Shown here piece after piece: positions 323 through 40,330 of a stretch of DNA of 64,000 bases. Below the pieces are notes generated by a model that was not told where the DNA came from, made no database searches, and saw only the letters and a program-made list of their open reading frames with translations. Every line of letters starts with the position of its first letter. The stretch's first letter is position 1. Where the stretch lies: the IMG/VR virus record IMGVR_UViG_3300045988_062794; one strand, 5' to 3'. A program made the translations under genes and the position numbers. The stretch comes from a virus.

Positions 323-2902
323 CTATTTTTTAGTTTTAGATTTACTTTTTTCTCCTACCACTTTATTCTTTAAAGCCGTTTTGGCTTTCAGTTTTTCTCT
401 TTCCATTGCAGCTTTATCTTTAAGAATCTGCAACTTCTTAGCTTCCTCAAGTTTCTGCTTTTCTAATGCTATCTTTTCTCTTTCAATAGTAGCTTTAAGC
501 TTTTCAGCTTTATCTGACTGTTCAATCTTCTTAGCTTCTATCTGTTTCTTATTCTCAGCTTCACGAGCTTTATTAGCTTGTTCAATCTGTTTAGACATAA
601 TATCAGAGTAAAGACGTTGCTGTTCAATTGCTTGATTACCAATCTCAATAGGATCTGGTATACCATTGCCATCTTGATCCATACTTTCAGAACCACGATA
701 AGCATTCAATTGAGCAACAGTAATCTTAGTAGCATTGTCCTGATCAATCTTGTATTTCTCAAGGTCAAGTTCTGCTTCTTTAAGCATAAGTTCTTGTTCC
801 TTAACTTGATTCTGCATTTGGACAAGTTGCTGCTGTTGCATTGCTTCTTGTTCTTGCATAGCTTGCTGCTGAGATATTCTTTGATTTTCAAGTTCTTGTA
901 ACTTATTCTTTAACATTGATAGATTATCCATCATATACATTTCAGCAGCATCTACAAGACTTGCACCATTCTGCATAGCTGGTTGTATCAATGCTCTTAA
1001 CTGCTCAATTGCTTGAGATTCTTTAGTAGAATCCGTTACAAAAATATCAAAGTCTTCATATGGGAAATTATCTGATACTGAGACAAATGCTCTAGTAGTG
1101 TCATCAAATATATAATTGAGATACTGTTTATCACTATCTTTCCATGCAGCTTTTGCAGCATTTAATAACATTAATAAAGCTTGTTTCTTTACTTGGTTAT
1201 GCATCCAGAATAAAGGTTCAGTAATATGAGCAGATTGTATTACAGATCTTTCTACATTACCTACTAATTCTGTACTAGAGATAGCACCTTGTCTTTGAGG
1301 AGTTACCCCAGACAACTCTGAAGCCATAGCTTCAATCTTATCAAGTAACTGTATATACTGAGCTATGACATTACCCATAGTAAGATCCCAAGTAGAGAAT
1401 CCATTCCAACTTGATGGTCTACCACCTTCTCTACCAGGTATATCCCAACCTTCATCATATGGGTTAATAAATGCAACACCTAGTGCACTTAAGTAATGTA
1501 ACCATTTTGAAGTATCTATACCTAATCCTTTAGGTATCTGTGTAACATCTACTACAGGTACTTTACCTTTATCTCTAGCCATAGCTAGTTCTAATCGATA
1601 GAATGTAGTAATATATAAATACTGTAATGGTTTCATTATACTAACTAATGATTTTGGTACACTGTTAGTATTACTATAGACTACCCCAGTATATGGTAAT
1701 CTCTGCGAATTAAGATTGTTACTAGTAATATACTGATATTCTATAGGTTGAATACCAAAGTAAATGTCATCATCTGCTCTATATCCTTCCCATACTTCTA
1801 CAATCCAATCCCATTCTACTGTTTCGGTTTCGAGTGGTTTATAATATTCGTCTACTACAATTTCTTCAGGTAAACCTGTTTCAGGGTTGATAGTTGTTAA
1901 GAAACCTATTTTCTTAAAAGATTTCCAACATACATGATAAACTACCACATCTTCAGCATCACCATAAGGATTATGATCAGGTAACTTACTATAAATCTTA
2001 GTATCTATATGGTTCCAATCGTCAACCATATTCTTATCACCTAACCAGTTCTTACCACTCTTACCATACTGATCGAATTTCTCTAGTAACTTATTGAGTT
2101 GTTTTTCATCCATTTTATCATAAAACTCATCATATACCTGAGTATATGACATAATCATTTTATTACAACACATAGGTGCTTCATGAATGAATTCTATGCC
2201 ATCACAATCATCATACCAGAAACCTTTTGGGTTAACCCTATTTAAACAAGGTTCTCCATTCCTAATGCCTACGTAAAGAACTTCTTCCCCAGCAATAAGT
2301 GCATCTTTCCATGTCTTTACAAACTCATGGTCTATATTCAAAGAGTTCTTCAAATAGTTTAAACTGTGATAAGCAGTTAATTCGGCAACATCCTTATAAT
2401 CCTTAGTAAGGTATTCCTGTATTTGTTCTGGAGTCTGTATTTCCCCAGATTGTAAGGCTTCTTCATATCTTGCTTGTCCTTCAGGGCTCATCTTAGCCAT
2501 GATTGCTGCTTGTACATAATCTAAAAGCATTTGCTTAGCTTTTTCTTGCATTTCACTTGCAGCAGCATCGCTAGTACGGCATACCTTAAAATTGAAAGGT
2601 CGTTTAGTTTCTTCACCAATAAGTAAATCAATCTTAGGTCTGATAATGTTATAATCCTGTGCCATTGCTGGGAAACCATCATCTTGGTTAAAAGGGTTAG
2701 TAACATACTTCAAATCCTTTTCACTATAGACACTATTATATAGATCATAATAAGTCTGCATTTCTTCTTCTGAAGGTACTGTATCAGAATTAGTTATTTG
2801 TGATTGACCTATAATGTAATCCACACAACATTCCCGCCATTCGTCAGTCTTCTTGTTATAAGGTATTTTCTGTATAGGAAAGCTATTTACTGTGCGTTCC
2901 AT
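323..2902 (-). CDS. portal protein (crAss-like), with long Q/E/K-rich C-terminal tail
   Basis: 859-aa ORF directly downstream of and co-oriented with the large terminase. Size and position are typical of a portal. Recognised by eye only. Confidence 0.65.
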   Translation of the reverse strand: MERTVNSFPIQKIPYNKKTDEWRECCVDYIIGQSQITNSDTVPSEEEMQTYYDLYNSVYSEKDLKYVTNPFNQDDGFPAMAQDYNIIRPKIDLLIGEETKRPFNFKVCRTSDAAASEMQEKAKQMLLDYVQAAIMAKMSPEGQARYEEALQSGEIQTPEQIQEYLTKDYKDVAELTAYHSLNYLKNSLNIDHEFVKTWKDALIAGEEVLYVGIRNGEPCLNRVNPKGFWYDDCDGIEFIHEAPMCCNKMIMSYTQVYDEFYDKMDEKQLNKLLEKFDQYGKSGKNWLGDKNMVDDWNHIDTKIYSKLPDHNPYGDAEDVVVYHVCWKSFKKIGFLTTINPETGLPEEIVVDEYYKPLETETVEWDWIVEVWEGYRADDDIYFGIQPIEYQYITSNNLNSQRLPYTGVVYSNTNSVPKSLVSIMKPLQYLYITTFYRLELAMARDKGKVPVVDVTQIPKGLGIDTSKWLHYLSALGVAFINPYDEGWDIPGREGGRPSSWNGFSTWDLTMGNVIAQYIQLLDKIEAMASELSGVTPQRQGAISSTELVGNVERSVIQSAHITEPLFWMHNQVKKQALLMLLNAAKAAWKDSDKQYLNYIFDDTTRAFVSVSDNFPYEDFDIFVTDSTKESQAIEQLRALIQPAMQNGASLVDAAEMYMMDNLSMLKNKLQELENQRISQQQAMQEQEAMQQQQLVQMQNQVKEQELMLKEAELDLEKYKIDQDNATKITVAQLNAYRGSESMDQDGNGIPDPIEIGNQAIEQQRLYSDIMSKQIEQANKAREAENKKQIEAKKIEQSDKAEKLKATIEREKIALEKQKLEEAKKLQILKDKAAMEREKLKAKTALKNKVVGEKSKSKTKK

Positions 2903-2904
2903 AT

Positions 2905-4965
2905 TTAAAATGAAAATGTTAATATATTTGAATCAAATAATTTATTTGTAGAATCAGAAGTGTCTTGTTCAAACCATTTATCTGTAAATATAGGTAAATC
3001 AAACAATCTTTGGTTCCTCTCTACTTCTTGTTTTTGCTTTACTTGAGACGTATACAATTGTTCCCTGTATATCATTAACTGAATCATTGCCATTACCCTA
3101 TCGAAGTTACCTTTATCATTATACATTATTAATTCCTGTAGTAATGGTTCTGATAGTATAGACTCAAGTCTCATATGACCAGGTTCTGTTTCTTCCTCTA
3201 GCCATTCCTTAATCTTACCCTCACCCCAAAGTTTTATCTCTTTATTCATATGACAACCTTTACGTCTATTTACTTTGGAGTCTCTTACGATATCTTTGAT
3301 AATATCTGGTTGATCAGCTAGTAAGTAATCACAGTGCTTATTATTAAAGTAAGCGAATATACCAGTGTTTTGGTTTTCTACCATAGCCCTAGCATTATAA
3401 TACATTAATAGTTTACGTACATTATCATAGAATTCTTCTGCTGTTTTTGGTCTACCAGTATATTCTGCTACTAATATGTCACTATAAGATTCAAAGTTCT
3501 GTATACGCTTGTATATAAATATAGAACCTAATGAGTTAGTACCGGATTGATCTTGATCATATGGGTCTAAACCTGCTATATATAAGCCTATGGGAGGATC
3601 AGGGCAAGGGTGTTCCCATATTACTATAGAACCTGTAGGATCTGCCATCTTTGGTAGAGGATATTCTGTAATATCGCCTGTCTTTTTGATTACCCATTTA
3701 GGCACACCCTGTTCCCATACTAAATCACCAACTTGCTTGTGATTTTGTAATTTACGATTAGTTCTTATCCTAGCTAATTGTTTTTGTAATTCTCGTTTAG
3801 GGAATATATTACCAGATAGTTCAGTAAAGGCTTCAGCGGGTGTTTCTGCATGTTCTGCAGTATACCTGTCTACTTGTTGAGAGTCTTTAGCACTCTTTAA
3901 TTCTTTAGCTCTTAGGTTAAGTATATATGCCCTAGCTTTATCGTGAAGAGTATTACCATCGTCATCCATATATATACGATTACCATTTGAATCACGTATA
4001 TCTAGGTTAGTATGTTGAGGTACAAAGAAACCACATTTCTTACCACCAACTGCACCTTCATCCCATATATTATCAAAACCAATACAGTTAAATGCTTCAG
4101 GGTCGTAAAAGGCTTCCCTTAAACCTGCTACATTATCACCCTCGTCACCACCTGTACCAAACAAAAGCATTAGACCAAAGGCAACGCCATCTTGTTCTAC
4201 TGATGGTCTAGCAATTTCCCATGCAGCTTTTAATTCTTTGAATGAACCACCTTCTTCCCACACAATTAGTTTAGCAGCCTTACCACGAACAGCATTTGGG
4301 TTATCTTTAACAGATACACCCATTATTTCAGATTTATAACCCATTTCTACTTTGTTACCAAATTCATCAGTAACAAGCATAGATGCTCTTTTACGCATAG
4401 CTGTATTAGCTACTTGCCTTTTCTTACCCCATGCGGTATTAGCATCAATAAAATCCATATAATCCCAAGCTTTGGTTAAGTTACCATCTTCAGTAAGATA
4501 TTGCTTGTTTGATGCATATACATAAGACTTTGAATTAGGGATAAGAAAGAAGTTACGACACAACATGGAAGCAGTTTTATATGAATAACCCTTACGTCTT
4601 GCTTTTGTGAGTACCATATGTTTACCTTGATTCTCTGCTTCCTCTACAGCTTGAAAGAAGTAATAATCGTAATCATAGAAATCAGGGAATGCAGCCTGTC
4701 TAACCTTCTTAGTTTCACCATTAGTTGTGATATAAACAAGTCTTTGAATAGGACAATAGTTTAAATAGAAATAGTTATACCCAGTAATGTAATCACCATC
4801 TTCTGCAGTATAACCATTAACACATCTATCTACTTCTTGGTCCCAGAAATTGTAATATTCAGTAGTACCTTTCGGGTAAGCACAATAAGACCCCGACGCT
4901 AAATAAGTCAACGCCGGGGTTCTAAACTTGTCACTATTCTTGATTTTCTTACTGAAATCAATCAT
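2905..4965 (-). CDS. terL: terminase large subunit
   Basis: 686 aa. P-loop-like KARRKGYSYK, Walker-B-like IVWEEGGSF, and a C-terminal nuclease-type acidic cluster GLDPYDQD. Adjacent to the portal. Confidence 0.8.
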   Translation of the reverse strand: MIDFSKKIKNSDKFRTPALTYLASGSYCAYPKGTTEYYNFWDQEVDRCVNGYTAEDGDYITGYNYFYLNYCPIQRLVYITTNGETKKVRQAAFPDFYDYDYYFFQAVEEAENQGKHMVLTKARRKGYSYKTASMLCRNFFLIPNSKSYVYASNKQYLTEDGNLTKAWDYMDFIDANTAWGKKRQVANTAMRKRASMLVTDEFGNKVEMGYKSEIMGVSVKDNPNAVRGKAAKLIVWEEGGSFKELKAAWEIARPSVEQDGVAFGLMLLFGTGGDEGDNVAGLREAFYDPEAFNCIGFDNIWDEGAVGGKKCGFFVPQHTNLDIRDSNGNRIYMDDDGNTLHDKARAYILNLRAKELKSAKDSQQVDRYTAEHAETPAEAFTELSGNIFPKRELQKQLARIRTNRKLQNHKQVGDLVWEQGVPKWVIKKTGDITEYPLPKMADPTGSIVIWEHPCPDPPIGLYIAGLDPYDQDQSGTNSLGSIFIYKRIQNFESYSDILVAEYTGRPKTAEEFYDNVRKLLMYYNARAMVENQNTGIFAYFNNKHCDYLLADQPDIIKDIVRDSKVNRRKGCHMNKEIKLWGEGKIKEWLEEETEPGHMRLESILSEPLLQELIMYNDKGNFDRVMAMIQLMIYREQLYTSQVKQKQEVERNQRLFDLPIFTDKWFEQDTSDSTNKLFDSNILTFSF

Positions 4966-4969
4966 ATTA

Positions 4970-5215
4970 TTAATGATTAAACAATTTCTTTATATTTCTC
5001 CAAACTCTCTTATAGAGAGGCATTGTAGCTTGTTTCAATTTTTCTACTGCTGCCTTCTCTGCAGCTTCCTGCTCCATTAGAGTAACCTCTATATCTTTAA
5101 GGGCTTTATAGTCATATGCGGGTCCCATATTAACAATCGTATCATACTGATTGTATTTAACTTTAACTGATTTTGCCTTACTAGTAGTTTTAGTAGCTTT
5201 CTTTTCCTTAGTCAT
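4970..5215 (-). CDS. hypothetical protein (81 aa, basic N-terminus)
   Basis: ORF tightly packed upstream of terL. Confidence 0.45.
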   Translation of the reverse strand: MTKEKKATKTTSKAKSVKVKYNQYDTIVNMGPAYDYKALKDIEVTLMEQEAAEKAAVEKLKQATMPLYKRVWRNIKKLFNH

Positions 5216-5275
5216 AGTTATTATATTTTGTGCGTTTAACGCGTAGTTAGTTTATTTTGTTTCAAAATGTATTAC

Positions 5276-5836
5276 TTACCGTACAGCTTGTCTATTTGAT
5301 AGTTCATATGGGTTAACTTCTGCACCACCACGAATCCTATTATTAGCTAATTCTTCTGATCTTACTGCGGACTCTAATGCATCTAGAGATTTAATAGTAT
5401 TACCAAGTTTTTCCATACCTGCTAGGATTAATTGAACTTTCTTATCATCAAGTTCATCTTGTAGTGACTCTGCATAATATCTAGATACACTATCTAATTT
5501 TAACCTAGCATTCTTAAGTAAGCCTAAGATAAGAGTTTCATTGAAATTAATGTAAGCTTGTTCTGCTTCTATTACCTCTACTGGTAATTTATAGTTAGCA
5601 TCATCAAAGAGCTCTTTCTTAAGTCTTGGTTCTATGTCTTCAGGAGACATACTTTTTACATAAGGACTATCATATTTATTCTTTAGTACAATATAAGTAA
5701 TGTATTTAGTAGCCATTTCTTTATCTGCCTTATCGGCATCCCATACCTTTTTAAAGGCTGGGATACCTAGGGCATCATTGTGTATAACTACTTTTCCTGC
5801 AAGAATATCAAATAGTTTCATTAGTTCGGACAACAA
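5276..5836 (-). CDS. hypothetical protein (186 aa)
   Basis: ORF in the late block. No motif recognised. Confidence 0.5.
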   Translation of the reverse strand: MLSELMKLFDILAGKVVIHNDALGIPAFKKVWDADKADKEMATKYITYIVLKNKYDSPYVKSMSPEDIEPRLKKELFDDANYKLPVEVIEAEQAYINFNETLILGLLKNARLKLDSVSRYYAESLQDELDDKKVQLILAGMEKLGNTIKSLDALESAVRSEELANNRIRGGAEVNPYELSNRQAVR

Positions 5837-6171
5837 TCACAACAAATTTTTTCACAATTACCGCAATCACGTACTTTCTGATAATTGTGTCTCATTTCTT
5901 TTAATTCAATTAATCTGTTGATAGCGGAAGCACAAGGTACAATTACAATCTCAGGAGCTTTATCTTTTTCTGTAGTATAAGCTTTGAACAACAAACTAGG
6001 TTCAGTAATTTCGTATTTCTTACCTTCATAAAACAATTCCCCAGCTTCAGGTAAAATATAGTAATAATCAATTATATCATATTTTTCAACATTATCTTGA
6101 ATATTTTCAAGAGAACCATCTTTACTACTTAACAAATTGTTATATCTTAAATTGTAAATCATATTAATCAA
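5821..6171 (-). CDS. hypothetical protein with Cys-rich C-terminus (CGNCEKICCDCCPN)
   Basis: 116-aa ORF with a 16-nt overlap onto the next gene. Has a C-terminal cysteine cluster. Confidence 0.45.
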   Translation of the reverse strand: MINMIYNLRYNNLLSSKDGSLENIQDNVEKYDIIDYYYILPEAGELFYEGKKYEITEPSLLFKAYTTEKDKAPEIVIVPCASAINRLIELKEMRHNYQKVRDCGNCEKICCDCCPN

Positions 6172-6266
6172 ATTTTATATACCTTAATTTATAGTGTCTA
6201 TTTAAAGCATCAACAGCTTCTTGTTTAGTGTAAAACATATTTACATACTCTGGATTACGACTGTAG

Positions 6267-6767
6267 TTATTTATTATCTCCTTCAGTTGTTCCGCTATCT
6301 CGTCCTGATTCTTGTGTCTCATTTTCTATTGTATTATCTGATGAACCAAAACCGTTTTCACCTCTGTCACCTTCAACTAATTCTTCAGCTAGAGTAGGTT
6401 CAATAGTAGGATAAGGCATAATAATTAACTGTGCAATCTTTTCACCTGGTTGATAGATAGTAGGCAATGCATCAGTAGTAAGTTTAAACTTACACATGAT
6501 TTCACCTCTGTAACCAGCATCTACTACACCTACACAATTGCACAATGATAAGGATCTCTGAGATACAGATGATCTCATAAAGATGAGACCTACATATCCT
6601 TCAGGAATCTCTACTGCTAAATCAGTATGATATACTAGTACCATTTTACCACTCTTATCAAATTCCTGAGTAAACCTAGTAGCGGTTAAATCTAATCCAG
6701 CATCATTAGGATTAGCATAAGTAGGTAATACTGCATCTTGTGCTAATTTCTTAAACTTTACTTCCAT
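6267..6767 (-). CDS. dut: dUTP diphosphatase (dUTPase) with acidic/polar C-terminal extension
   Basis: Classical trimeric dUTPase motifs: AGLDLTA, RSS, GVVDAGYRGEI, RGENGFGSSD. Confidence 0.85.
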   Translation of the reverse strand: MEVKFKKLAQDAVLPTYANPNDAGLDLTATRFTQEFDKSGKMVLVYHTDLAVEIPEGYVGLIFMRSSVSQRSLSLCNCVGVVDAGYRGEIMCKFKLTTDALPTIYQPGEKIAQLIIMPYPTIEPTLAEELVEGDRGENGFGSSDNTIENETQESGRDSGTTEGDNK

Positions 6768-6850
6768 GTTATTTTCTTACTATATTATTTCCTAATATTA
6801 TTTCCGTCATCTGTGCTGCTAGATTTGCAGCATAATCTTCAGCAAATTGA

Positions 6851-7627
6851 CTACGATTCGTGTCCTGTAGTATCTGTTTCAGATACAGTAGAATCACTTG
6901 TTGATTCAATAGTATCTGATCCAGTTTCTCTTCTATGTTTGTTTCTTTCATATTCAATTTCCTCTACAGCATTCTTGAGAAAGTTTATTAGTTCTCGTCT
7001 AAGCAAGTTAGATCTTAATACTGGATCACCTTTGTATTGCGCTTCTAATGTATATACAAATCTACCATCTCTATCTTTATTCTCTTCTGCTTTATCATCA
7101 TAATTAAAGATTTCTCTATAATAGATCTTGATATTGTCAAGAGAACATTTCTTAATAGCTTTGTTGATTTGCTTATCAGTGAACATATACTTTTGTTCTT
7201 TACTAGAGATAGCGTCACAATCAGCTTTGATAATCTCATTATAGGCATCCATTACTTCCCAAAAGTCGTCTATTAATTTCTGCTTACGAGCTGCTTCAGG
7301 AACAATATCTCCTTCACGGTGTTTACTTATCCAAAGTAAAGCAATAGCATTCCAGGCTACTTGTGCTAGATGCCTACATCCTGTTTCTTCATCAAAGATT
7401 TCATTCTCTGCAGCATACAAGTGTCTAAGTAATGCACCTTTATATCTTTCATAACCGTTTTCTAGATTCTGCCAAGTATTATCATTATACTTCTTAGCAC
7501 CCTCTGTATATACTCTAGCAATATCTTCAAGACAGTCCAATGGCATTAATTCCCATCTTGTTTTATCGTCTTTACGATCGTTCTTCATATCCATCTGGTT
7601 TAGGCATTTTTTGTATTCGTATTGCAT
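6851..7627 (-). CDS. dATP/dGTP diphosphohydrolase-N-terminal-domain-like protein
   Basis: RWELMPLDCLEDIARVYTEGAKKYNDNTWQN...ALLRHLYA...ETGCRHLAQVAWNAIALLW matches, from memory, the phage dATP/dGTP pyrophosphohydrolase N-domain pattern. The real start may be an internal Met (7594 or 7588). Confidence 0.55.
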   Translation of the reverse strand: MQYEYKKCLNQMDMKNDRKDDKTRWELMPLDCLEDIARVYTEGAKKYNDNTWQNLENGYERYKGALLRHLYAAENEIFDEETGCRHLAQVAWNAIALLWISKHREGDIVPEAARKQKLIDDFWEVMDAYNEIIKADCDAISSKEQKYMFTDKQINKAIKKCSLDNIKIYYREIFNYDDKAEENKDRDGRFVYTLEAQYKGDPVLRSNLLRRELINFLKNAVEEIEYERNKHRRETGSDTIESTSDSTVSETDTTGHES

Positions 7628-7961
7628 CTATTTCAGTCTTATTCTCTAGTATAGCTTTACATATCCTGTGATAACCATCACATATTCTACCGTAACTATC
7701 TAGTATAATTGGATATTTAGTATCTGCTTTTTGTATTCGTAAAGAATGAAATATAAAATCATCTAAACATCCAACATCCCAAGGTAAGTGTGATAGATCT
7801 ATGCCAACTAGAGGTAATTTAAATACAGGATATTTCTGTTCTTTACAGTAGGTAATAAGTGTTGATGCATTCCATATTTTACCCTCACATATATATCTAT
7901 TCTCTGTGATTCCAGAGTCTTCAAATATTACTCTTGGGTTCTTGTCTTTCTTTGCTAGCAT
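7572..7961 (-). CDS. ParB-like nuclease-domain protein
   Basis: ILDSYGRICDGYHRICKAI contains the DGxHR signature of ParB/sulfiredoxin-fold domains. Confidence 0.45.
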   Translation of the reverse strand: MLAKKDKNPRVIFEDSGITENRYICEGKIWNASTLITYCKEQKYPVFKLPLVGIDLSHLPWDVGCLDDFIFHSLRIQKADTKYPIILDSYGRICDGYHRICKAILENKTEIDAIRIQKMPKPDGYEERS

Positions 7962-8145
7962 ATTTCTTTTTTAGTTTTATTTTAAAAAGATATCCAAACA
8001 TAATAGATTTTGTATCATCATTACTTGCAATTATATTAGAAGCAAATTTAAAAGGATGATTACATATTACTTCTATTACTTGATATGGTATGTTATATTT
8101 ATTAGCTAATTGAGTATATATGCTAGTTCTTTTTTGAGAAGTCAT
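7921..8145 (-). CDS. hypothetical protein (74 aa)
   Basis: ORF in an operon-like array with short overlaps on both neighbours. Confidence 0.4.
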   Translation of the reverse strand: MTSQKRTSIYTQLANKYNIPYQVIEVICNHPFKFASNIIASNDDTKSIMFGYLFKIKLKKKYASKERQEPKSNI

Positions 8146-8515
8146 ATACTACTTTATATTCTTTATTCTGGAGTAAATCATCAAAGGATGATGCTGCATC
8201 AATAGAACCCGGTCTAATAGTATTAACTATTATCTTTAAAGTATCAAGTGCTGTGTTATCAGCATATACTTTAATACTTTGTAACTTCTTTGCTTCTTGT
8301 TTAGAATAATCTACTATAGGTTCTAACGCTAACGTATTCTCCTCACTTAAAGGGTTATCCAGAGTAATAGGATAATGTAAAACCGTTTCTGTCTTTATTA
8401 TTATTCCTTTATTGTAGTCTAGTTTCTTACCAAGAAGTTTATTAAACCATATTTTAATCTTAGAGTAATCTTGCCAAAGGATTATAGTACCTGGCTTAAA
8501 TGTTATTATTTTCAT
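8123..8515 (-). CDS. hypothetical protein (130 aa)
   Basis: ORF in the array. Confidence 0.5.
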   Translation of the reverse strand: MKIITFKPGTIILWQDYSKIKIWFNKLLGKKLDYNKGIIIKTETVLHYPITLDNPLSEENTLALEPIVDYSKQEAKKLQSIKVYADNTALDTLKIIVNTIRPGSIDAASSFDDLLQNKEYKVVYDFSKKN

Positions 8516-8876
8516 GTATTCTAATTATGATGGTTACTTGAACTCTGTCTCCGATGATCTCTGGTATTAGAGCTTTATTAACACTTAATTCATCTTCGGC
8601 AGGACCTGCAATTAGAATTCCTTTTTCTTTGAAAGCTTTAATGTACCGACTTAGATTATCCTTAGTAATACCTAATGTTTGAATTATATGCTTTCTATTC
8701 TGTCTATTAGCTATATTCTTGTGTTCATTAGGTAGTTTATTATAATTAATGTCTAATCTAATTAACTCAGCCATTAATTCTAGTTCCCTGTCCGTAAGCC
8801 GAAGTATGCCATTAAGTGATGTTAAGAACTCTGTAATAAGATCATCCTTATTTACAGTCTTAACTAATTTATTCAT
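8496..8876 (-). CDS. putative winged-helix/HTH DNA-binding protein
   Basis: HIIQTLGITKDNLSRYIKAFKEKGIL reads as a helix-turn-helix. Eye call only. Confidence 0.4.
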   Translation of the reverse strand: MNKLVKTVNKDDLITEFLTSLNGILRLTDRELELMAELIRLDINYNKLPNEHKNIANRQNRKHIIQTLGITKDNLSRYIKAFKEKGILIAGPAEDELSVNKALIPEIIGDRVQVTIIIRIHENNNI

Positions 8877-9318
8877 TGTCTTCCTTGTCTACATCTAAGA
8901 TCTGCTGAATAGCATTAATAAGTTTCAACAGATTTTGGTTTACTGTTTCAGATTCTAATTTCAAACAAGGTTGAATCTTACCTTCTTCAAAATCCTTTCT
9001 TACTTTATCCAGATTACCTTCATATTTGGTTTTGCAATCATTGATAAAAGCTTCCAATGCAATCAACTTCAGTTCAGCAATAGTAGGTAATGTTTCTTCT
9101 TCTACTTCAGCAACTTCTGAACCATACGGTTCCAAATTGCCACCTTTTACTAATGCGTCAACATATTCTTCGTTAATAGACATAAAACGAGAATTAGTAC
9201 CTTTCTTTGTAGTTTTAGTGTCTTCCATTACAAATTCTCTATCATCAGAGTCGAAATTAAAGATATCACCAATCTTTGCACAACCAAAAGGTTTAATTAC
9301 TTTATAAGCTACGTTCAT
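8869..9318 (-). CDS. hypothetical protein (149 aa)
   Basis: ORF in the array. Confidence 0.5.
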   Translation of the reverse strand: MNVAYKVIKPFGCAKIGDIFNFDSDDREFVMEDTKTTKKGTNSRFMSINEEYVDALVKGGNLEPYGSEVAEVEEETLPTIAELKLIALEAFINDCKTKYEGNLDKVRKDFEEGKIQPCLKLESETVNQNLLKLINAIQQILDVDKEDNE

Positions 9319-9319
9319 A

Positions 9320-9619
9320 TTATTTACTTATTTGTTTAACCATTAATTCTACCCACTTGTTAATATCAAACTTTGTATCACCTTCCTTAATCACTGTATC
9401 GCCGTCTGTAGTATACTGCTTTGGTTGATTCATGATCATATATGCATTCATTAAATCTTGTAAAGATACTGTTATTTTGTAAGCATTTGTTTTAGATGGG
9501 GAATGCATATCTTTAGGTATGAACAAATTGTATTGACCATTAGGTAGTTTTTCTATCCATTCTGATAGACCACTCATGTTAATGAGGTTATCTATCAAGC
9601 TATTATTTTCAATGTTCAT
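9320..9619 (-). CDS. hypothetical protein (99 aa)
   Basis: ORF in the array. Confidence 0.5.
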   Translation of the reverse strand: MNIENNSLIDNLINMSGLSEWIEKLPNGQYNLFIPKDMHSPSKTNAYKITVSLQDLMNAYMIMNQPKQYTTDGDTVIKEGDTKFDINKWVELMVKQISK

Positions 9620-9715
9620 GATTATATAACGCGTATGATTTATTTTTGTTGTAATTTTTATGCAATAAAAAAGCCCCTAATTTCTTAGGAGCTAATTTAT
9701 AAAAATGAAAAAAGC

Positions 9716-10102
9716 CTATTTGTTTTTACTAATGAAAGCTACCACATTGTATGGATTTACTAATTGACTATCTTTAAAGAGATCAAAATGTGCAGCAGCT
9801 TTAGAAGGATACGCTACAATATCACCTACTTCAGGATGATTCTCTTTATCTTGCCATTCATAATTTGAAGGGATTGCTAATACTACACCCTTTCTAAAGG
9901 TAGTAGGTACTTTCTTTACTTCTGTTTTAGTATCATACTTGTCAATACCATCTACATCTTTCTTACCAGTTGGTATTGGTTCTGAGATCTCTTTCTCAAT
10001 ATATTCTTCAGGTAACGGTTTAACTAAAATGTCCCGAGTAAACGAATACTCTACTTTTTCTAGTACCTGATCCAGTAATATATTATCTTTATTCTCTGCC
10101 AT
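9716..10102 (-). CDS. putative GroES/gp31-like co-chaperonin
   Basis: Pattern ILVKPL ... KGVVLAIP ... VGDIVAY ... NVVAFI parallels GroES VIVKR ... GEVLAVG ... VGDIVIF. It has a long insertion where the mobile loop sits. Confidence 0.4.
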   Translation of the reverse strand: MAENKDNILLDQVLEKVEYSFTRDILVKPLPEEYIEKEISEPIPTGKKDVDGIDKYDTKTEVKKVPTTFRKGVVLAIPSNYEWQDKENHPEVGDIVAYPSKAAAHFDLFKDSQLVNPYNVVAFISKNK

Positions 10103-10150
10103 AATCCTTATTTTTGCTGTTAAAACGCGTTATAATGCAAATTGTTCCTT

Positions 10151-10396
10151 TTAAAAGTTACTATATTTCAGTATATTTCCTCCAGTACAGCAGATATTTA
10201 GTGCTAACTGTGGACAGTGTTCCCTATCTTCAAATGCACAATTATCGCAACTACCATTATTTTGTGGGTGTATTATGTATTCTATACCGTCAATAGTAAC
10301 AAAACCTTTTAAGATAGCTTCTTTAGCTTCTGGTTCTCCCATATTAGTCATAATATTCAAATTCATCATCTGAGTATAAATCCTCAAACTCATCAT
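10151..10396 (-). CDS. hypothetical Cys-containing protein (81 aa)
   Basis: ORF containing CDNCAFEDREHC...CC. Confidence 0.4.
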   Translation of the reverse strand: MMSLRIYTQMMNLNIMTNMGEPEAKEAILKGFVTIDGIEYIIHPQNNGSCDNCAFEDREHCPQLALNICCTGGNILKYSNF

Positions 10397-10539
10397 AAAA
10401 ATAGAAATCTTCCATATACTATTACTTTAGATATTAGTAGTATAATCCAGAGTAAGGAGTAATGGTTGATATTACTTACTATCTCTATATATACTCTCCT
10501 ATCTCTCTACTCTAGACATAGAGAGTAACGAAATATATA

Positions 10540-10716
10540 TTAATTTTGTTCTATTTCTATCAAATATTTGTGCAATATGTCACTCTTATTATCTCCTTTA
10601 TTAGCGTATTTTACTACTTTATACTTAGCGTTTCTACCAATAACAGGCCAATATTCTGTTGTATAATACTCTTCTATTACTTCTTTTTCTCTATTTGATT
10701 TACAATTTTTTAACAT
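10540..10716 (-). CDS. hypothetical protein (58 aa, below ORF-track cutoff)
   Basis: Hand translation: MLKNCKSNREKEVIEEYYTTEYWPVIGRNAKYKVVKYANKGDNKSDILHKYLIEIEQN. It fills an otherwise empty gap in the late block. Confidence 0.35.
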   Translation of the reverse strand: MLKNCKSNREKEVIEEYYTTEYWPVIGRNAKYKVVKYANKGDNKSDILHKYLIEIEQN

Positions 10717-10736
10717 CTTTTAACTATATTTAACTA

Positions 10737-10967
10737 TTATACAAAACTCATACTATCATGAGTACCATTTGTGTTCTTACAAAAGAGTTCACAGCCTGTC
10801 ATATATTCTGATATAAGCTCCCCTGGTGTATCTGTTTCTTCTATATAAATCTCTAAGATATCACCATTTTCATATACTTTTTGATATGTTTTATAGCTCC
10901 AATCTCCTACTTTATTATCTTTTACTTTGGTAAAACCGTGCTGTTCTAACCACTCTGAGCGTGTCAT
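10737..10967 (-). CDS. hypothetical protein (76 aa), first gene of the minus-strand block
   Basis: ORF bordering the divergent control region. Confidence 0.5.
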   Translation of the reverse strand: MTRSEWLEQHGFTKVKDNKVGDWSYKTYQKVYENGDILEIYIEETDTPGELISEYMTGCELFCKNTNGTHDSMSFV

Positions 10968-11183
10968 TTTAACATTATTTAATTATTTTTAACATATAGC
11001 TTCTAACGTACACATAAAATTTTTGTTAAAAATATGTAAAAAATAAAAATTGAGCGCAAGGAGAAATTTGAGAGAGCGGGAAGTAGTATATAATTGCCCT
11101 CCCCCTATCATAAGTGAAAGGAAAGTCCCCCGGGGGTTCTCAATGCATCAAGCTGTGTTTTGGGCTTGTTATTTGCTTTAATA

Positions 11184-11218
11184 ATGCATCAAATTGGTTA
11201 ACTTATTTGTTTATTGTG
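11184..11218 (+). promoter_or_regulatory. bipartite motif copy C: ATGCATCAA-N20-ATTGTG (candidate early promoter)
   Basis: Exact 20-nt spacing shared with the copies at 11751 and 12332. Lies 79 nt upstream of the 11297 ATG. Confidence 0.45.
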
Positions 11219-11296
11219 ATTATTAACGTTTCAGCCACAGCGGAAGGCGGTTGTGGTGTAGTACTACTACTGAAGGGTAGATAGCCGAGAAGAAAG

Positions 11297-11704
11297 ATGA
11301 AGTGCGCAATCATGGAGTTGGAAGCAAAACAAGCAAGTAATGGTAACTGGTATGTGAACATCACAGCACAGCCAGAGAACGATCCATTTGCTGAAGAGTT
11401 ACACTACCGTATGTGGTGTAGCGAAGCGTTAGCTGAGAAGCTAACAGCTAAGAAACCAGCGTCTATCGAACTAAGACGAGTTAGTGTTAAGGTTGAGCAG
11501 TTCCAACGGGTTGATGATGACGGTACAATCAAGCCACAAGTGTTCAACACCTTGTCTGTGGTGGTACGTCAGTTCCAGAATGCAGATGTAGATGACCCAA
11601 CAGTCATGGCTGAGAAGCTGCGTTCATCTCTGTTGAAGGACGGTAAGATCTGTGATGTCCAGACAGATGACTTTGACGGTGCTACTGGTGACATTCCTGA
11701 GTGA
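11297..11704 (+). CDS. early protein, paralog of 12534..13154
   Basis: 135 aa. Shares MKCxI...NGNxY...DxF...YxM...AxxLxAKxP...VxVK...GDIPE with the 206-aa ORF. G+C-richer than its surroundings. Confidence 0.65.
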   Translation: MKCAIMELEAKQASNGNWYVNITAQPENDPFAEELHYRMWCSEALAEKLTAKKPASIELRRVSVKVEQFQRVDDDGTIKPQVFNTLSVVVRQFQNADVDDPTVMAEKLRSSLLKDGKICDVQTDDFDGATGDIPE

Positions 11705-11708
11705 GAGT

Positions 11709-11741
11709 AAGGGCTTCGGCCCTTCTCTTCATTCTTTTGTT
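11709..11741 (+). terminator. intrinsic terminator
   Basis: AAGGGC-TTCG-GCCCTT hairpin (11709-11724) followed by a T-rich run. Confidence 0.65.
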
Positions 11742-11750
11742 TTCTACGAC

Positions 11751-11785
11751 ATGCATCAAGTCCTTTTCCCTCTTAGCAGATTGTG
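11751..11785 (+). promoter_or_regulatory. bipartite motif copy A: ATGCATCAA-N20-ATTGTG
   Basis: Begins 27 nt after the terminator hairpin. About 50 nt are alignable with copy B. Confidence 0.45.
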
Positions 11786-12099
11786 AGGAGTATATTATAA
11801 AGTGTATATTTCTCATCATATTTATATTTATTTATATTCTTATGCCTAAACAGGTGATATTAGCCAGTATCATCGCTTTAAGTAAGAGTGTAGGCTAGTA
11901 GAGAACGGCATCTCTACGAAATCAGTAGCTATTGGTTAAACCTCTTTAGAAAAGGACTACTGAGCTATTATCCTTTGATAGCAAGCTTGATACCGAGTGA
12001 CTCTCGGTTGCATGTCGTAAAGACCAGGTAGGTGGTATAGTCAACTGCATCTAGACTACCTGGTTTACTTTTGATTATTAATCAATAAAATTATATATT

Positions 12100-12282
12100 A
12101 TGATAGCAGTGGTAAGATGCTATAAGCACATAACTCCGGTAATTGTTACAGTATTTGAAAAAAACGATGAACAAACTCAGAAAGATGCTCTAGAAATGGC
12201 TACTATCTTAAGTAGAAGAGACAACTGTGAGTATAGAGTAATGGTAGAGTATTGGGTTGCGTTTGGTACTCCAGCAAAGTAA
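12100..12282 (+). CDS. hypothetical early protein (60 aa)
   Basis: ORF preceded by TACTTTTG (12066-12073), which fits the Bacteroidota -7 pattern TAnnTTTG. Confidence 0.45.
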   Translation: MIAVVRCYKHITPVIVTVFEKNDEQTQKDALEMATILSRRDNCEYRVMVEYWVAFGTPAK

Positions 12283-12290
12283 GCTATTTA

Positions 12291-12330
12291 TAAGGTGTTG
12301 GTTTTGCCTTCACCTTATTTACTTTCTTAT
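12291..12330 (+). terminator. hairpin terminator candidate
   Basis: TAAGGTG (12291-12297) pairs with CACCTTA (12311-12317) around a 13-nt loop, followed by a T-rich tail. Confidence 0.45.
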
Positions 12331-12331
12331 A

Positions 12332-12366
12332 ATGCACCAAGTTAATTACCCTTTTAGCATATTGTG
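12332..12366 (+). promoter_or_regulatory. bipartite motif copy B: ATGCACCAA-N20-ATTGTG
   Basis: Same spacing as copies A and C. Begins 15 nt after the preceding hairpin. Confidence 0.45.
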
Positions 12367-12533
12367 CGAGATATAGTATACTTATAAGCGTACGAGAGTA
12401 TTAGAGTATGAGGATTAGATAATCCTCACCTTTCATCTTTTTCATCTCTTTCTCTTATTACTCTTTACGCCTATATATAATATATAGCGTATCATAGACA
12501 ATTAAACAATTAAACAACTAAATTATCAAAATT

Positions 12534-13154
12534 ATGAAATGTGACATTTTAGCTCATGAATTTAACACAGCTGAGAACGGTAATAGATACTGTAAGCTGG
12601 AAGTACGTCAATCTGGTGACGAATTCGGTAGAACATTCAATTATGTAATGTTTATTACTGATGCAATGGAAGCAGCTTTAGAAGCTAAGTTTCCGAAGTT
12701 TATCTACCTACAAGAGGTACGTGTAAAGGCACCTAAACCCTTTTATAGAGTTTGGGAGACTGATGGACCTGGTCATGCTCAGGGTGAGTTTGTTACTCGG
12801 CCTAATAGAGAAGATCCTGATAATCCTATAATGATTGTATTTGAGGATATCAAAGTTATTATTAGAACTATGCCTGATGGTTCACCCGCAAGAGGTGAAG
12901 ATGCGCAGAAATTAGCTGAATCAAGCTATTATAGAGGTATTAGTATGAATACTATTGTACCTATAGATGCGTATGATGATGGTGATACTGATAACAATAT
13001 TGGTGCTACAAATACAGGAGCTGATCCATTTGCTGGGGCATCTACAGCTGGTGATGGTGATATACCTGAAACCGCTACAGATCCAGCAGAACAACCTACG
13101 CAACAACCCGCTGGTAGACCGACTGGTAGACCTGGCGTAACAATTAGACGTTAA
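12534..13154 (+). CDS. early protein, paralog of 11297..11704, with Asp/Gly/Pro-rich C-terminal extension
   Basis: 206 aa. The N-terminal ~100 aa align with the 135-aa paralog, and the GDIPE motif is shared. Confidence 0.65.
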   Translation: MKCDILAHEFNTAENGNRYCKLEVRQSGDEFGRTFNYVMFITDAMEAALEAKFPKFIYLQEVRVKAPKPFYRVWETDGPGHAQGEFVTRPNREDPDNPIMIVFEDIKVIIRTMPDGSPARGEDAQKLAESSYYRGISMNTIVPIDAYDDGDTDNNIGATNTGADPFAGASTAGDGDIPETATDPAEQPTQQPAGRPTGRPGVTIRR

Positions 13155-13168
13155 TAATCATGAGAATG

Positions 13169-13199
13169 GCTGGTCTTAGTGATCAGCTGTTCTTTTTTT
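13169..13199 (+). terminator. intrinsic terminator
   Basis: GCTGGTC-TTAGT-GATCAGC (one G-U pair) followed by TGTTCTTTTTTT. Confidence 0.6.
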
Positions 13200-13231
13200 C
13201 AATTTACAAACGATAATCTGTATATTGTAAT

Positions 13232-16499: not shown

Positions 16500-16793
16500 C
16501 AGTTTACAACTTCATTATTTCTTCAGTGGCTGTACTTGCATGCGAATGTAGGTGCAGTCGTCCTCAGAAAATGACAAACCTGTGGGGCGTAAGTAACTAA
16601 GTAGTAATACTATAATGTCAGTATGTAGTATTACACTGAAACTGACTGTTATGATCGTGCGGACGTAAAAATCAGGTAGATGATAAGAATTGTACTGACA
16701 ATACAATTCTGCTGTATCTTAAAACAAGTTTTGATAGTCAAATTTTCCTAAACCAATCCTCGTTATTAGGTAAAATTTCTTTTTGTTTACGTA

Positions 16794-17437: not shown

Positions 17438-17689
17438 CTCGCCAGTTATAACTCTTTTATTAATAACTCTAAAGTTAACGCTTATGAGTATGGTGGTTAT
17501 CCCCAAGCATGTTAAACCTAACGCCCTAAACTCACTAAAATGTATATGAAGATATATACTACGAGTTGTGTATTTATATACAAATGACATAGTAAAAGTT
17601 CTATGTTAATTATAAGAAGGAAAGGAGGTAAGATAGGAATAAGGAATAAGAATACTATCTCATGCTTTTTACTTTAGAAACTTATTTGT

Positions 17690-18402: not shown

Positions 18403-18750
18403 TCTACAATCCAGTACTAAAGTGTCTATGTACTAATAGTATGTGTAATGTGAATCTTGAGTAGCATTACAGAGAGGAATAAACCTCTCTACTCAAGTCC
18501 CTTGTGGCAGTAGTAGGATATATGAGCGTATCAAAGACGGCAAGTATGTGTGCCTTAGTGCCAGCTTTTTGCTACATACTTTCTATCAAAGATTTCAAAT
18601 TGAAAACAGTATATGCTTTATGCTAGATTCTATGAGTATGTCTTGTATTTTGTTTAGCATTCAATAAGTCCCAGGCATGGGCAAGGAATCAATAACACTA
18701 TTACAAATATACTCTTTATAGAATCAATACTATTAGTAAATTCTTAGAGA

Positions 18751-18780
18751 GTAAGGAGAGTGATCTCCTTACTTTCACTA
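18751..18780. terminator. hairpin between convergent genes
   Basis: GTAAGGAG (18751-18758) pairs with CTCCTTAC (18765-18772). Lies between the plus-strand 17983..18402 and the minus-strand HNH gene. Confidence 0.4.
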
Positions 18781-18842
18781 TATTCACGGTATAAGAACTG
18801 TGCTGTGTCTTATTAGGCTTATTAATCATTGTTAGGACGGGG

Positions 18843-19388
18843 CTATCGTATGCCCCCATCTCCACTATACTTTTGTGCAATTATATTGCATAATTTAATA
18901 GTATCTTCATGAGACATTGTATTTTTCATATAATTTATTGCAGTAGATATAAATTGTACATTACCAATTTCATATCCTTTAGAAGAATCTATTCTATCTA
19001 AAGATGCAGTATAAATAGGATTATTATGATTTTTAGTATAAGTTGCTAATTGTAATTTAATTCCAGTATATGGACAAATACCGTTTTGTTGTTCCCATAT
19101 TTCTTTTAGATATTCTAATGTTAAATTAAAGTTTTTAAGTCTTTTCTTTGCATTTCTAAGATAATATCTAAAAGGAGTAAATTCATCTTTGCGATTATTT
19201 GAAATAAGATTAATAATATTACCACTTTTATTATTTTTATTTCCTTTCATTGAACAAGATCTACAACAATAATTATGTCTTTTCAATCGTATATTACGAT
19301 TATATTCTGTAATTGGTTTATCATACAGTTGTCCACAATTATCACAAACTATTTGAATTAATTTTCTATTCTGTTTATATTTTAACAT
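18843..19388 (-). CDS. HNH homing-type endonuclease
   Basis: CDNCGxxxxxxxxxxxxxxxxxxxxxxCCRSC zinc-like pairs plus SLDRIDSSKGYEIGNVQFISTAINYMKN (HNH-type). It is the only minus-strand gene inside the plus-strand block. Confidence 0.6.
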   Translation of the reverse strand: MLKYKQNRKLIQIVCDNCGQLYDKPITEYNRNIRLKRHNYCCRSCSMKGNKNNKSGNIINLISNNRKDEFTPFRYYLRNAKKRLKNFNLTLEYLKEIWEQQNGICPYTGIKLQLATYTKNHNNPIYTASLDRIDSSKGYEIGNVQFISTAINYMKNTMSHEDTIKLCNIIAQKYSGDGGIR

Positions 19389-19591
19389 AATATTAAAATT
19401 TTTAATTCGAAAACGTATAATATGTGGAATAGTTCTGTTTCGATATTAAAATATACGGGGATGAACGGTTTTGACTAGCAATTAGAGAGATAAGATAGGT
19501 TCGTTGTGTGTTTAAATGGCAATATTTTTGTCACAGACTATACCGGCTTAGTAGCTGCGTAAGTTTGCGTGCTAACTACGAAAGTGAGGGA

Positions 19592-19657
19592 GATAATATA
19601 GTTCAATGGTAGAATAATGCTTATGCATAGATCTGGGTTCAAATCCCAGTATTATCA
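19592..19657 (+). ncRNA. tRNA-like element 2 (66 nt), anticodon arm replaced by 4-bp stem + TTAT loop
   Basis: GATAATA TA GTTC-AATGGTA-GAAT A ATGC-TTAT-GCAT AGAT CTGGG-TTCAAAT-CCCAG TATTATC A. Twin of 29965..30030. Confidence 0.7.
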
Positions 19658-19675
19658 CATTAAAATTCTATTAAT

Positions 19676-21485: not shown

Positions 21486-22046
21486 ATGAAGAGAGAAGAT
21501 GAAGACAATCTAATTAGGCAGGCTAAACTTGGCGATCAGAAAGCTTTTAGTACGCTTTACGACCGTCACAAGCCATTAATTCGATACATTATCTTTGATA
21601 TTGTAAAGAATGATGATGTAGCAGATGATCTCCTATCTGTTACATTTACTAAGGCTTTCAGTCGTATAGACTCATATGTTAATCCTATTTCATTTGAGTT
21701 ATGGTTGAAGAGTATTGCGGTCAATACCTCAATTGATTACATACGACACACTAAGAATGAGAAGCAGAATCATTATATTGATTCCGAGGATAATTACATT
21801 CAATTGCAAGATAGTGAATTGTCTGCAGAAGATATTATATCTAAGCGAGAATCTATTGATCAATTGAAAGTAGCTCTGAGTAGATTGAGGTTTAAGTACC
21901 GTAATATATTAGAATTACGGTACTTTAAAGGCCTCAGCTATGAACAACTCGCAAATGAATTAGCCGTGCCTATAGGAACTATAAAAAGTGACTTAAACAA
22001 GGCTAAAAAGAAATTACGAGAATTCTATAACAAACTTAATAACTAA
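21486..22046 (+). CDS. ECF-type sigma-70 family RNA polymerase sigma factor
   Basis: Region-2-like LGDQKAFSTLYDRHKPLIRYII...DLLSVTFTKAF and region-4 HTH LSYEQLANELAVPIGTIKSDLNKAKKKL. Confidence 0.75.
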   Translation: MKREDEDNLIRQAKLGDQKAFSTLYDRHKPLIRYIIFDIVKNDDVADDLLSVTFTKAFSRIDSYVNPISFELWLKSIAVNTSIDYIRHTKNEKQNHYIDSEDNYIQLQDSELSAEDIISKRESIDQLKVALSRLRFKYRNILELRYFKGLSYEQLANELAVPIGTIKSDLNKAKKKLREFYNKLNN

Positions 22047-29964: not shown

Positions 29965-30030
29965 TTGTGTATAGTTTAATGGTAGAATATCTCGAAAGAG
30001 AAGATATGAGTTCGAGCCTCATTACACAAC
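29965..30030 (+). ncRNA. tRNA-like element 4 (66 nt), anticodon arm replaced by 4-bp stem + GAAA tetraloop
   Basis: TTGTGTA TA GTTT-AATGGTA-GAAT A TCTC-GAAA-GAGA AGAT ATGAG-TTCGAGC-CTCAT TACACAA C. Twin of 19592..19657. Confidence 0.7.
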
Positions 30031-35118: not shown

Positions 35119-35856
35119 ATGATAGTATTACCTACTGAAAAAGTAAAAGCTAAGGTATCTAATCCAAGATTCCTTATCATTTTTGGCAAACCTAAGTCAG
35201 GCAAGACTACTATAGTAAGTGAACTAGAGAATAACTTAATCATTGATCTTGAAGGTGGTTCTCAGTTCTTAGATGCACTTAGTGTTCAAGCTCGTAATGT
35301 AGCAGATTTAGGCGAAATTGCAGCTGCAATTCGTCAAAAGAACAAAGAGTGTAATGGCTTCTTTTATAAACATATTACTATTGATAATGCAACACGCTTA
35401 GAAGAGATGACGTTAAGTTATGCTCTTACTTTGTATAATCAGACTCCAATGGGTAAATCCTATAGAGGTGATGTTCGTATGTTGCCTAATGGCGCTGGTT
35501 GGTTCTATATCAGACAGGCTGTAAGAAAAGTTATCGATATGTTTCGCGAATTATGCGAAGAATTTATCTTAGTAGGTCATACTAAAGATAAATTAGTCAA
35601 TAAAGAAGGTGAAGAACTTTCCGAAATGCAGTTAGATTTAGCTGGTAGACTAAGTGATATCATCTGTGGTGAAGCAGATGCTATTGGATATGTTTATAGA
35701 AAGAAAAACCAAACTCTCATATCTTTTCAAGGTGGAGAGAATAATATAGTAGAAGCGAGAGCACCTCATCTTAGAGGTAAAACAGTTGTTATTGCAGAAA
35801 GTGACGAATCTGGCAAAATAACTACTGATTGGAATAAAATATATTTGCCTAACTAA
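35119..35856 (+). CDS. Sak4-like/AAA_24-type P-loop ATPase
   Basis: Walker A FGKPKSGKT near the N-terminus, Walker-B-like ITIDNATR, and VGHTKDK. Adjacent to an SSB-like gene. Confidence 0.5.
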   Translation: MIVLPTEKVKAKVSNPRFLIIFGKPKSGKTTIVSELENNLIIDLEGGSQFLDALSVQARNVADLGEIAAAIRQKNKECNGFFYKHITIDNATRLEEMTLSYALTLYNQTPMGKSYRGDVRMLPNGAGWFYIRQAVRKVIDMFRELCEEFILVGHTKDKLVNKEGEELSEMQLDLAGRLSDIICGEADAIGYVYRKKNQTLISFQGGENNIVEARAPHLRGKTVVIAESDESGKITTDWNKIYLPN

Positions 35857-40201: not shown

Positions 40202-40330
40202 GTTTAGACATACTTAATACTACGTTAACCTGTAGTATTTTTGAATTAATATGTTTCTGCTTCTTATGCTGTACTATCAGCAACATAGTAAATCTTACTA
40301 CGTTCATGTTTATATTTAAATCATATATGC

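Follow-up and report, generated by a model that had tools for sequence, protein, structure and literature searches.

Among the viruses of the human gut, crAss-like phages are the most abundant. The IMG/VR record IMGVR_UViG_3300045988_062794, a stretch of 64,000 nt referred to at its full length as the window, comes from an uncultured gut lineage of these phages within the Suoliviridae (Boorivirinae) and is related to cr10_1 (Crassvirales, Suoliviridae, Boorivirinae, Canhaevirus). At the head of its rightward replication block lies an array of short units headed by copies of a 35-bp motif, ATGCAYCAA-N20-ATTGTG, and the somewhat favoured reading is that these units form a cassette array of lineage-specific bipartite promoters for which the virion RNA polymerase of the phage is the best-candidate reader. 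In the mechanism proposed here, the three copies would act as bipartite promoters (ATGCAYCAA, a spacer of 20-21 nt with a fixed TT, and ATTGTR), each driving one short transcription unit that is ended by its own hairpin terminator, and the array would consist of portable promoter-cargo-terminator cassettes placed at the very start of the replication block. Synteny with phi14:2 and crAss001 suggests that expression would begin with these genes, and their cargo would comprise two paralogous OB-fold proteins with acidic tails that resemble single-stranded DNA-binding proteins (SSBs), together with a small protein preceded by a long structured RNA leader. The reader would most likely be neither the host primary-sigma holoenzyme nor the extracytoplasmic function (ECF)-type sigma factor of the phage, and the injected 4259-aa virion RNA polymerase would be the best candidate, in a clustering of a few virion-polymerase promoters like that of N4 or P23-45.

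The motif has exactly three matches in the window, all on the + strand, at 11184-11218 (copy A), 11751-11785 (copy B) and 12332-12366 (copy C), and none in 100 dinucleotide-preserving shuffles, which confirms the three exactly spaced copies reported by the initial annotation. Copy A reads ATGCATCAA-N20-ATTGTG and its conservation runs on into ATTATTAACG (to ~11228), and copies B and C are likewise exact matches to the pattern. Allowing up to three mismatches adds only a partial copy at 11143, besides matches at background level. This is a fourth ATGCATCAA (11143-11151, +), described at the outset as having a poor downstream box and found to carry three mismatches in box 2; an orphan box 1 without a proper box 2 is also kept in the junction of two related clades. 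The spacer holds an invariant TT at +6/+7 after CAA. An extended similarity of ~50 nt (CAAGT...CCCTYTTAGCAKATTGTG), which had been placed between the first two copies, is real but joins the copies at 11751 and 12332 and does not include the first. The spacing of 20 nt, also taken to be fixed, is so in the window, but in two related clades the copy heading the third unit has N21.

Conservation of the motif among relatives was assessed by scanning IMG/VR with the exact pattern and then, completely, with a refined pattern. About 35 crAss-like contigs carry two to four copies each, and the other matches are singletons in unrelated contigs, at the level expected by chance. The relatives form three clades (the close relatives of the window, cr10_1-like genomes and L159/L188-like genomes), and their proteins from the first unit, unit A, are 61-69% identical to that of the window. 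The complete cr10_1 genome has the perfect motif at three places only, at the orthologous head of its replication block. A footprint alignment of nine copies, drawn from four cargo types and three clades, shows 1.89 and 1.87 bits per position in the two boxes, compared with 1.03 in the spacer and 0.51-0.53 in flanks of 25-30 nt, and the refined consensus is ATGCAYCAA-N20/21 (fixed TT)-ATTGTR. Because the proteins of units A and C are only 37% identical and the cargo of units B and X is unrelated, the identity of the boxes at 15 of 15 positions must be kept by selection and is not a relic of duplication.

All copies are sense-oriented and lie upstream of an open reading frame (ORF), and all but the first follow a significant hairpin by 15-27 nt. 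In the window, the hairpins at 11709-11724, 12291-12317 and 13162-13194, the last with a T7 run, fold with z = -3.5 to -4.0. The first two of these had been proposed as terminators and are real, as are the distances of 27 and 15 nt that separate them from the starts of copies B and C; the terminator said to close the third unit was also recovered, at 13162-13194 followed by T7. With the copy of the additional unit X, known from relatives, included, the distance from hairpin to motif is 15-27 nt for B, C and X (hairpins at z = -3.6 to -4.0). The reading of the region as a repeated promoter-gene-terminator arrangement, put forward in the initial annotation, is strongly supported by the confinement of conservation to the motif, the placement of terminators and ORFs, the location of the motif in cr10_1 and the gain and loss of whole units, and the copies are very probably promoters as judged from these features of the DNA.

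Gain and loss of units is evident across the relatives, whose architectures follow the order A, [X], [B], C, with the bracketed units present in some genomes. Unit X consists of a 64-aa ORF that comes with a motif copy (ATGCATCAA-N20-ATTGTA) and a terminator belonging to it, and two of the clades include genomes that carry it. Between these clades the X protein is almost the same, although their unit A proteins share ~64% identity; the difference of ~36% in the latter implies that the whole of unit X was transferred recently. Unit B is missing in L127/L088. Where close relatives differ by an indel or a replacement, the end points fall at the motifs, and each cargo travels together with its motif copy. 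This behaviour, together with the location of the repeats beside the strand-switch, the cumulative GC-skew minimum and an AT-rich inverted-repeat region, might suggest that they are not transcription signals at all but origin iterons, sites at which cassettes are exchanged by recombination, or remnants of duplication. However, unlike iterons, the copies are separated by 570-580 nt that include genes, all of them have the sense orientation, with an ORF close downstream and, in all but the first, a terminator close upstream, and they are conserved far beyond the duplicated coding sequence. Recombination at repeated promoters is moreover expected and compatible with promoter function, and a role outside transcription is the least probable of the explanations weighed here.

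If the motifs are promoters, initiation would be predicted ~5-15 nt downstream of ATTGTR, at ~11219-11233, 11786-11800 and 12367-12381 for copies A, B and C. The distance from box 2 to the start codon is 15-19 nt in unit X, and 26 nt for unit A and 37 nt for unit B in the third clade, and these distances bound the putative start site to within ~15 nt downstream of ATTGTR or to the motif itself. The leader of unit A contains a conserved hairpin with an invariant GGAAGGCG loop (11234-11257, +), absent from the third clade, whose stem shows three compensatory pairs as well as G.U pairs that pair only in the + sense RNA; this covariation and these G.U pairs imply that + sense RNA is made from just downstream of copy A. 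Short public contigs carrying the unit A gene, examined as possible transcript-like assemblies, proved to be metagenomic, with ends that scatter over 11084-11099 and are uninformative on transcription starts or genome ends.

The gene map of the window, built by synteny with the annotated cr10_1 genome, places the array where early transcription would be expected. A leftward block (323-10967) runs from small genes to the terminase and portal and then to structural genes. The rightward replication block (11297-42314) opens with the three units, followed by non-coding RNAs (ncRNAs), the ECF-type sigma factor, DNA polymerase, helicase and primase. A second leftward block contains a 2481-aa protein and the 4259-aa ORF at 49840-62619 (- strand), which had been predicted to be a virion RNA polymerase and is indeed a homologue of the phi14:2 gp66 RNA polymerase (PDB 6VR4, E = 1.2e-28), with the DFDID motif at residue 3326. 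By this synteny, the three motif copies head the replication-side, "early"-type block of a genome that encodes a gp66-type polymerase. Transcription of the replication module in phi14:2 is early and resists rifampicin, and ncRNAs are produced abundantly at this stage from long intergenic regions close to where the module starts; crAss001 turns on a small operon at one end of its genome within 0-10 min (10.1101/2020.03.07.982082; PMC8375218). Given the position of the early class in these two phages, the motif copies are placed where first transcription is expected, and an early temporal class is predicted for all three units. The cluster of three copies is present, and relatives assemble through the junction, so that physical genome ends do not show in the assemblies.

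Which polymerase would read the motif was approached by comparing sigma-type promoters. An ECF-type sigma factor (Sigma70_r2 and r4; PHROG 1740) is encoded by the phage inside the replication block (21486-22046, +), and the motif is bipartite, so promoters served by this factor with the host core polymerase have to be considered. However, the window carries a second motif, (G/A/C)AACA(A/T)-N14/15-CGTT(A), at 11027, 10550, 10146, 9650 and 5261 on the - strand and also at 40282 (+). Its - strand sites are all intergenic and precede five leftward genes or gene groups that follow one another; cr10_1 has orthologous sites at 35416, 35705, 36332, 36863 and 40884. The motif has the AAC and CGT features and the spacing (16-17 nt) of ECF promoters. 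This second motif is the probable target of the phage sigma factor and, as its natural target, leaves ATGCAYCAA-N20-ATTGTR without a sigma-type reader. Comparison of the latter with the ECF promoter (AAC and CGT, 16-17 nt apart) led to rejection of that type for the motif, since its box sequences differ and its spacing of 20-21 nt is outside the ECF range. The sigma gene, moreover, lies 10 kb downstream in the very block that the motifs head and cannot act first, and a role for this factor at the three copies is highly improbable.

At infection only host holoenzymes and the injected enzyme would be available, the sigma gene being downstream in the same block, and the virion polymerase therefore becomes the best candidate. 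That it reads the motif is plausible, the case being about evenly poised, and the identity of the polymerase is proposed with less support than promoter activity. Several points weigh against it. Early 5' ends have been mapped in a single crAss-like phage, phi14:2, and no common motif was found upstream of them (10.1101/2020.03.07.982082; PMC8375218), and the heads of the phi14:2 and crAss001 early regions contain no comparable repeat. Among related genomes, those of the three clades carry the motif, cr10_1 at the head of its replication block, but sibling genera within the subfamily (cr50_1 and cr1_1/cr55_1) and members of other subfamilies (cr109_1, cr6_1 and cr125_1) share the polymerase and lack the full motif in exact or near-exact form, retaining at most CAYCAA-like cores and a conserved C-rich element at the junction. 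The three to four copies span only the first 2 kb of a block of 31 kb, the rest of which must be served by other promoters or by read-through. A weak sigma-70-like TTAGCA-N17-TATAMW is also present in copies B and C, and the argument that the motif is unlike a host promoter is weakened by the fact that no canonical Bacteroidota promoters are detectable across the window.

Some of these points bear equally on the explanation that the motifs are promoters read by the host RNA polymerase with a primary or alternative host sigma factor, which would make them strong early promoters of unusual sequence. The sigma-70-like hexamers of copies B and C match that promoter type at 9-10 of 12 positions, sibling genera with the same virion polymerase do without the motif, and the transcripts of the phi14:2 virion polymerase share none. 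Nevertheless, copies A and X have both boxes without such hexamers, the hexamers in B and C do not overlie the conserved boxes, and the boxes themselves, 20-21 nt apart, are too distant for -35/-10 contacts. The Bacteroidota promoter (-33 TTTG and -7 TAnnTTTG, ~19 nt apart) is represented by neither element at the motif, in keeping with the dissimilarity noted from the start, and its patterns are not enriched in the window (5 matches compared with 3.1 expected, and 92 compared with 84.5). Reading by the host enzyme is considered unlikely.

Box 1 might instead be the site of a regulator (an operator or activator site of phage or host), with the core promoter confined to the vicinity of ATTGTR or located elsewhere. 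Orphan box 1 copies without box 2 are conserved at the junction (11143 and its counterpart in two further clades), genera from which box 2 has disappeared still have CAYCAA-like cores, and several predicted transcriptional regulators are encoded in the leftward block. On the other hand, the two boxes are equally conserved at a fixed distance of 20-21 nt, and box 1 is not palindromic beyond ATGCAT, a palindrome that is itself broken in the ATGCAC copies. A regulator site at box 1 is therefore judged a rather remote prospect, and a bipartite promoter read by the virion polymerase continues to be preferred. Going further, the motif could tentatively be seen as the first sequence-defined promoter of a crAss-type single-polypeptide two-barrel (QDE-1-like) virion polymerase, bipartite, double-stranded and sigma-free, with SSB-like proteins and structured RNA that would set up the next stage of transcription or replication and a specificity that evolves fast between genera; this extended model is somewhat doubtful as a whole.

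The arrangement can be compared with several known systems. In the promoter early stem-loop (PeSL) cassettes of T4-type phages, a terminator stem-loop and an early promoter are likewise repeated between small fast-evolving ORFs, indels and replacements end at the repeats, and cargo travels with its own signals (PMC2839356, PMC4122927). The promoter sequence is nevertheless unrelated, T4 early promoters being of the sigma-70 type, and one cluster of two to four units at the head of the early block contrasts with the many hyperplastic regions of T4-type phages; the polymerase here is probably not the host holoenzyme, and early-promoter activity is predicted from sequence. The P1-P3 promoters of phage N4 provide a second parallel, in that three clustered promoters head the first-expressed genes and are served by a giant virion-delivered polymerase (PMC4496689). 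N4 promoters, however, are DNA hairpins (a stem of 5-7 bp and a loop of 3 nt), and N4 has a T7-like enzyme, in contrast to the two-barrel, QDE-1-like type of the crAss-like phages. An N4-type hairpin promoter was considered for the motif and rejected, as no conserved hairpin lies in or around it: the three copies share none, and folds of both strands are no better than shuffles (z = -0.6 to +0.9).

Thermus phage P23-45 also has a two-barrel virion polymerase, fused to the tape measure, and a conserved motif upstream of pre-early starts at one genome end, whose presence tracks lineages (10.1101/2022.12.01.518664). That motif is a single AT-rich block in 14 copies with a special conserved terminator motif, unlike the bipartite motif in three to four copies with ordinary hairpin terminators described here, and the P23-45 sites were mapped experimentally while those of the window are predictions. 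Phi14:2 and crAss001 share with the window the polymerase family (E = 1e-28, DFDID), an early class at the start of a block running away from the structural genes, and long, highly structured non-coding stretches near that start (10.1101/2020.03.07.982082; PMC8375218), with the difference that no common early motif was detected in phi14:2. Since none was found there, the promoter class of crAss-like virion polymerases has no sequence definition, and the library of papers that was searched returned none describing an early promoter or a transcription-start map for any crAss-like phage. The motif is a new candidate that is, in kind, a variant of known phage early-promoter cassettes.

The one experimental study, on phi14:2, found no early promoter motif, and a 35-bp candidate addresses what the giant virion polymerase recognizes. 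Being compact, conserved in three clades and bounded to ~15 nt in its start, it offers a template for transcription, binding and structural work. The first-expressed region would be built from exchangeable cassettes, and new host-takeover or anti-defence genes and ncRNAs are likely to enter the genome there. If the motifs prove to be ordinary host-read promoters, the finding amounts to routine regulatory annotation.

The gene of unit A (11297-11704, +) encodes a 135-aa protein with a predicted SSB-like OB-fold and an acidic disordered C-terminal tail (...DDFDGATGDIPE), as judged from a structure model and fold comparison. The model has a predicted local distance difference test (pLDDT) score of 88 and shows a beta1-3/alpha/beta4-5 barrel followed by the tail. 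Its best PDB matches are all bacterial SSBs, though weak (E ~0.02, TM 0.35-0.48), and a search of a viral structure library retrieves uncharacterised proteins from many crAss-like phages, among them the product of the first early gene in cr1_1, with weaker matches to phage SSBs and DUF669. The fold, and not the sequence, recurs in uncharacterised proteins of cr60_1, cr114_1, cr4_1, cr1_1, cr131_1 and cr130_1. With phmmer, the first early genes of other genera show no homology in sequence to the proteins of units A and C, although the two sets are linked by fold comparison. The sole relative of the unit A protein among GenBank phages is in cr10_1 (63% identity). PHROGs and Pfam gave no match for any of the unit proteins, and megablast of the region against GenBank phages gave none either. 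N4 requires host SSB (PMC4496689), a parallel to first products that here appear to have an SSB-like fold, and gp66 of phi14:2 worked in vitro only on denatured DNA (10.1101/2020.03.07.982082; PMC8375218). In view of these properties of the two virion polymerases, a first product with a predicted SSB-like fold is suggestive.

The terminator hairpin of unit A (11709-11724, +) has a GGGCTTCGGCCC core within an extended stem (11699-11734) and is followed by a pyrimidine-rich tail. Unit B begins with a long, strongly structured, non-coding leader (11786-12099, +; z = -5.7 compared with shuffles), of which 11786-12069 (~285 nt) is variable, an insert that relatives lack or have exchanged for other sequence; among relatives the leader measures 32-505 nt, and in several genomes it contains no ORF. 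The unit B gene (12100-12282, +), itself absent from some relatives, encodes a 60-aa protein of unassigned function and is followed by the terminator hairpin of the unit at 12291-12317 (+). Unit C encodes a 206-aa paralogue of the unit A protein (12534-13154, +), and the array is closed by a predicted strong intrinsic terminator with a 14-bp stem and T7 (13162-13200, +). Rfam contains no family for the unit leaders at E <= 1, and a SAM-III match (E = 0.03) that falls inside the coding sequence of unit C was treated as chance. The unit C leader (12367-12533) has a terminator-like hairpin at 12409-12428, then a long CT-rich tract and then ATATATAGCGTA (~12481-12495), a sequence seen again in both cr50_1 and cr1_1, in their second early intergenic region, and, in looser form, in cr109_1. 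Close relatives carry a variable number of GAGAGTAT repeats ahead of the hairpin.

Just upstream of unit A, the divergent junction holds a C-rich element (CCCTCCCCC ... GGAAAGTCCCCCGGGGG; 11097-11136, +). Comparison of the junction in the window, cr10_1, cr50_1, cr1_1, cr55_1, cr109_1, cr6_1, cr125_1 and L159/L188 placed a CCCCTCY...GG(G)AAAnnCCCC element at the same junction in every Suoliviridae genus examined, usually with an RGCAYCAA box nearby. The element is unusual for a genome of 30% G+C, is preceded by TTATAAAAAAT, GGGGATA and GTGTG blocks, and might function as a promoter, origin or packaging signal. In an ENA scaffold (MUNK22-1...scaffold_123400; L192 1-330), ~310 nt of GC-rich, bacterial-looking DNA is joined ~80 nt upstream of the C-rich element, which may reflect a chimeric assembly or hint at a physical end of the genome. 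Three hairpins whose stems covary and whose loop (TGTTGTGAAAYAC) is conserved occur in the fourth and fifth early intergenic regions of cr50_1 (L131); the window has nothing similar, and the TGTTGTGAAA hairpin-loop repeats of cr50_1 are likewise without a counterpart there.

Further RNA features lie deeper in the replication block. A few kb downstream of the array, a hatchet ribozyme (16560-16677, +; 85 bits) scores above its Rfam gathering score, as does a RAGATH-9 RNA in the early block (17493-17670, +; 92 bits). Rfam also reports two tRNAs, at 19592-19657 and 29965-30030 (+; 59 and 48 bits), while ARAGORN finds no tRNA or tmRNA in the whole window; a tmRNA is annotated in the equivalent block of cr10_1. 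Two stretches of the sense strand are free of ORFs, 18403-19675 (1.3 kb) and 24351-26644 (2.3 kb), and probably hold further ncRNAs or introns.

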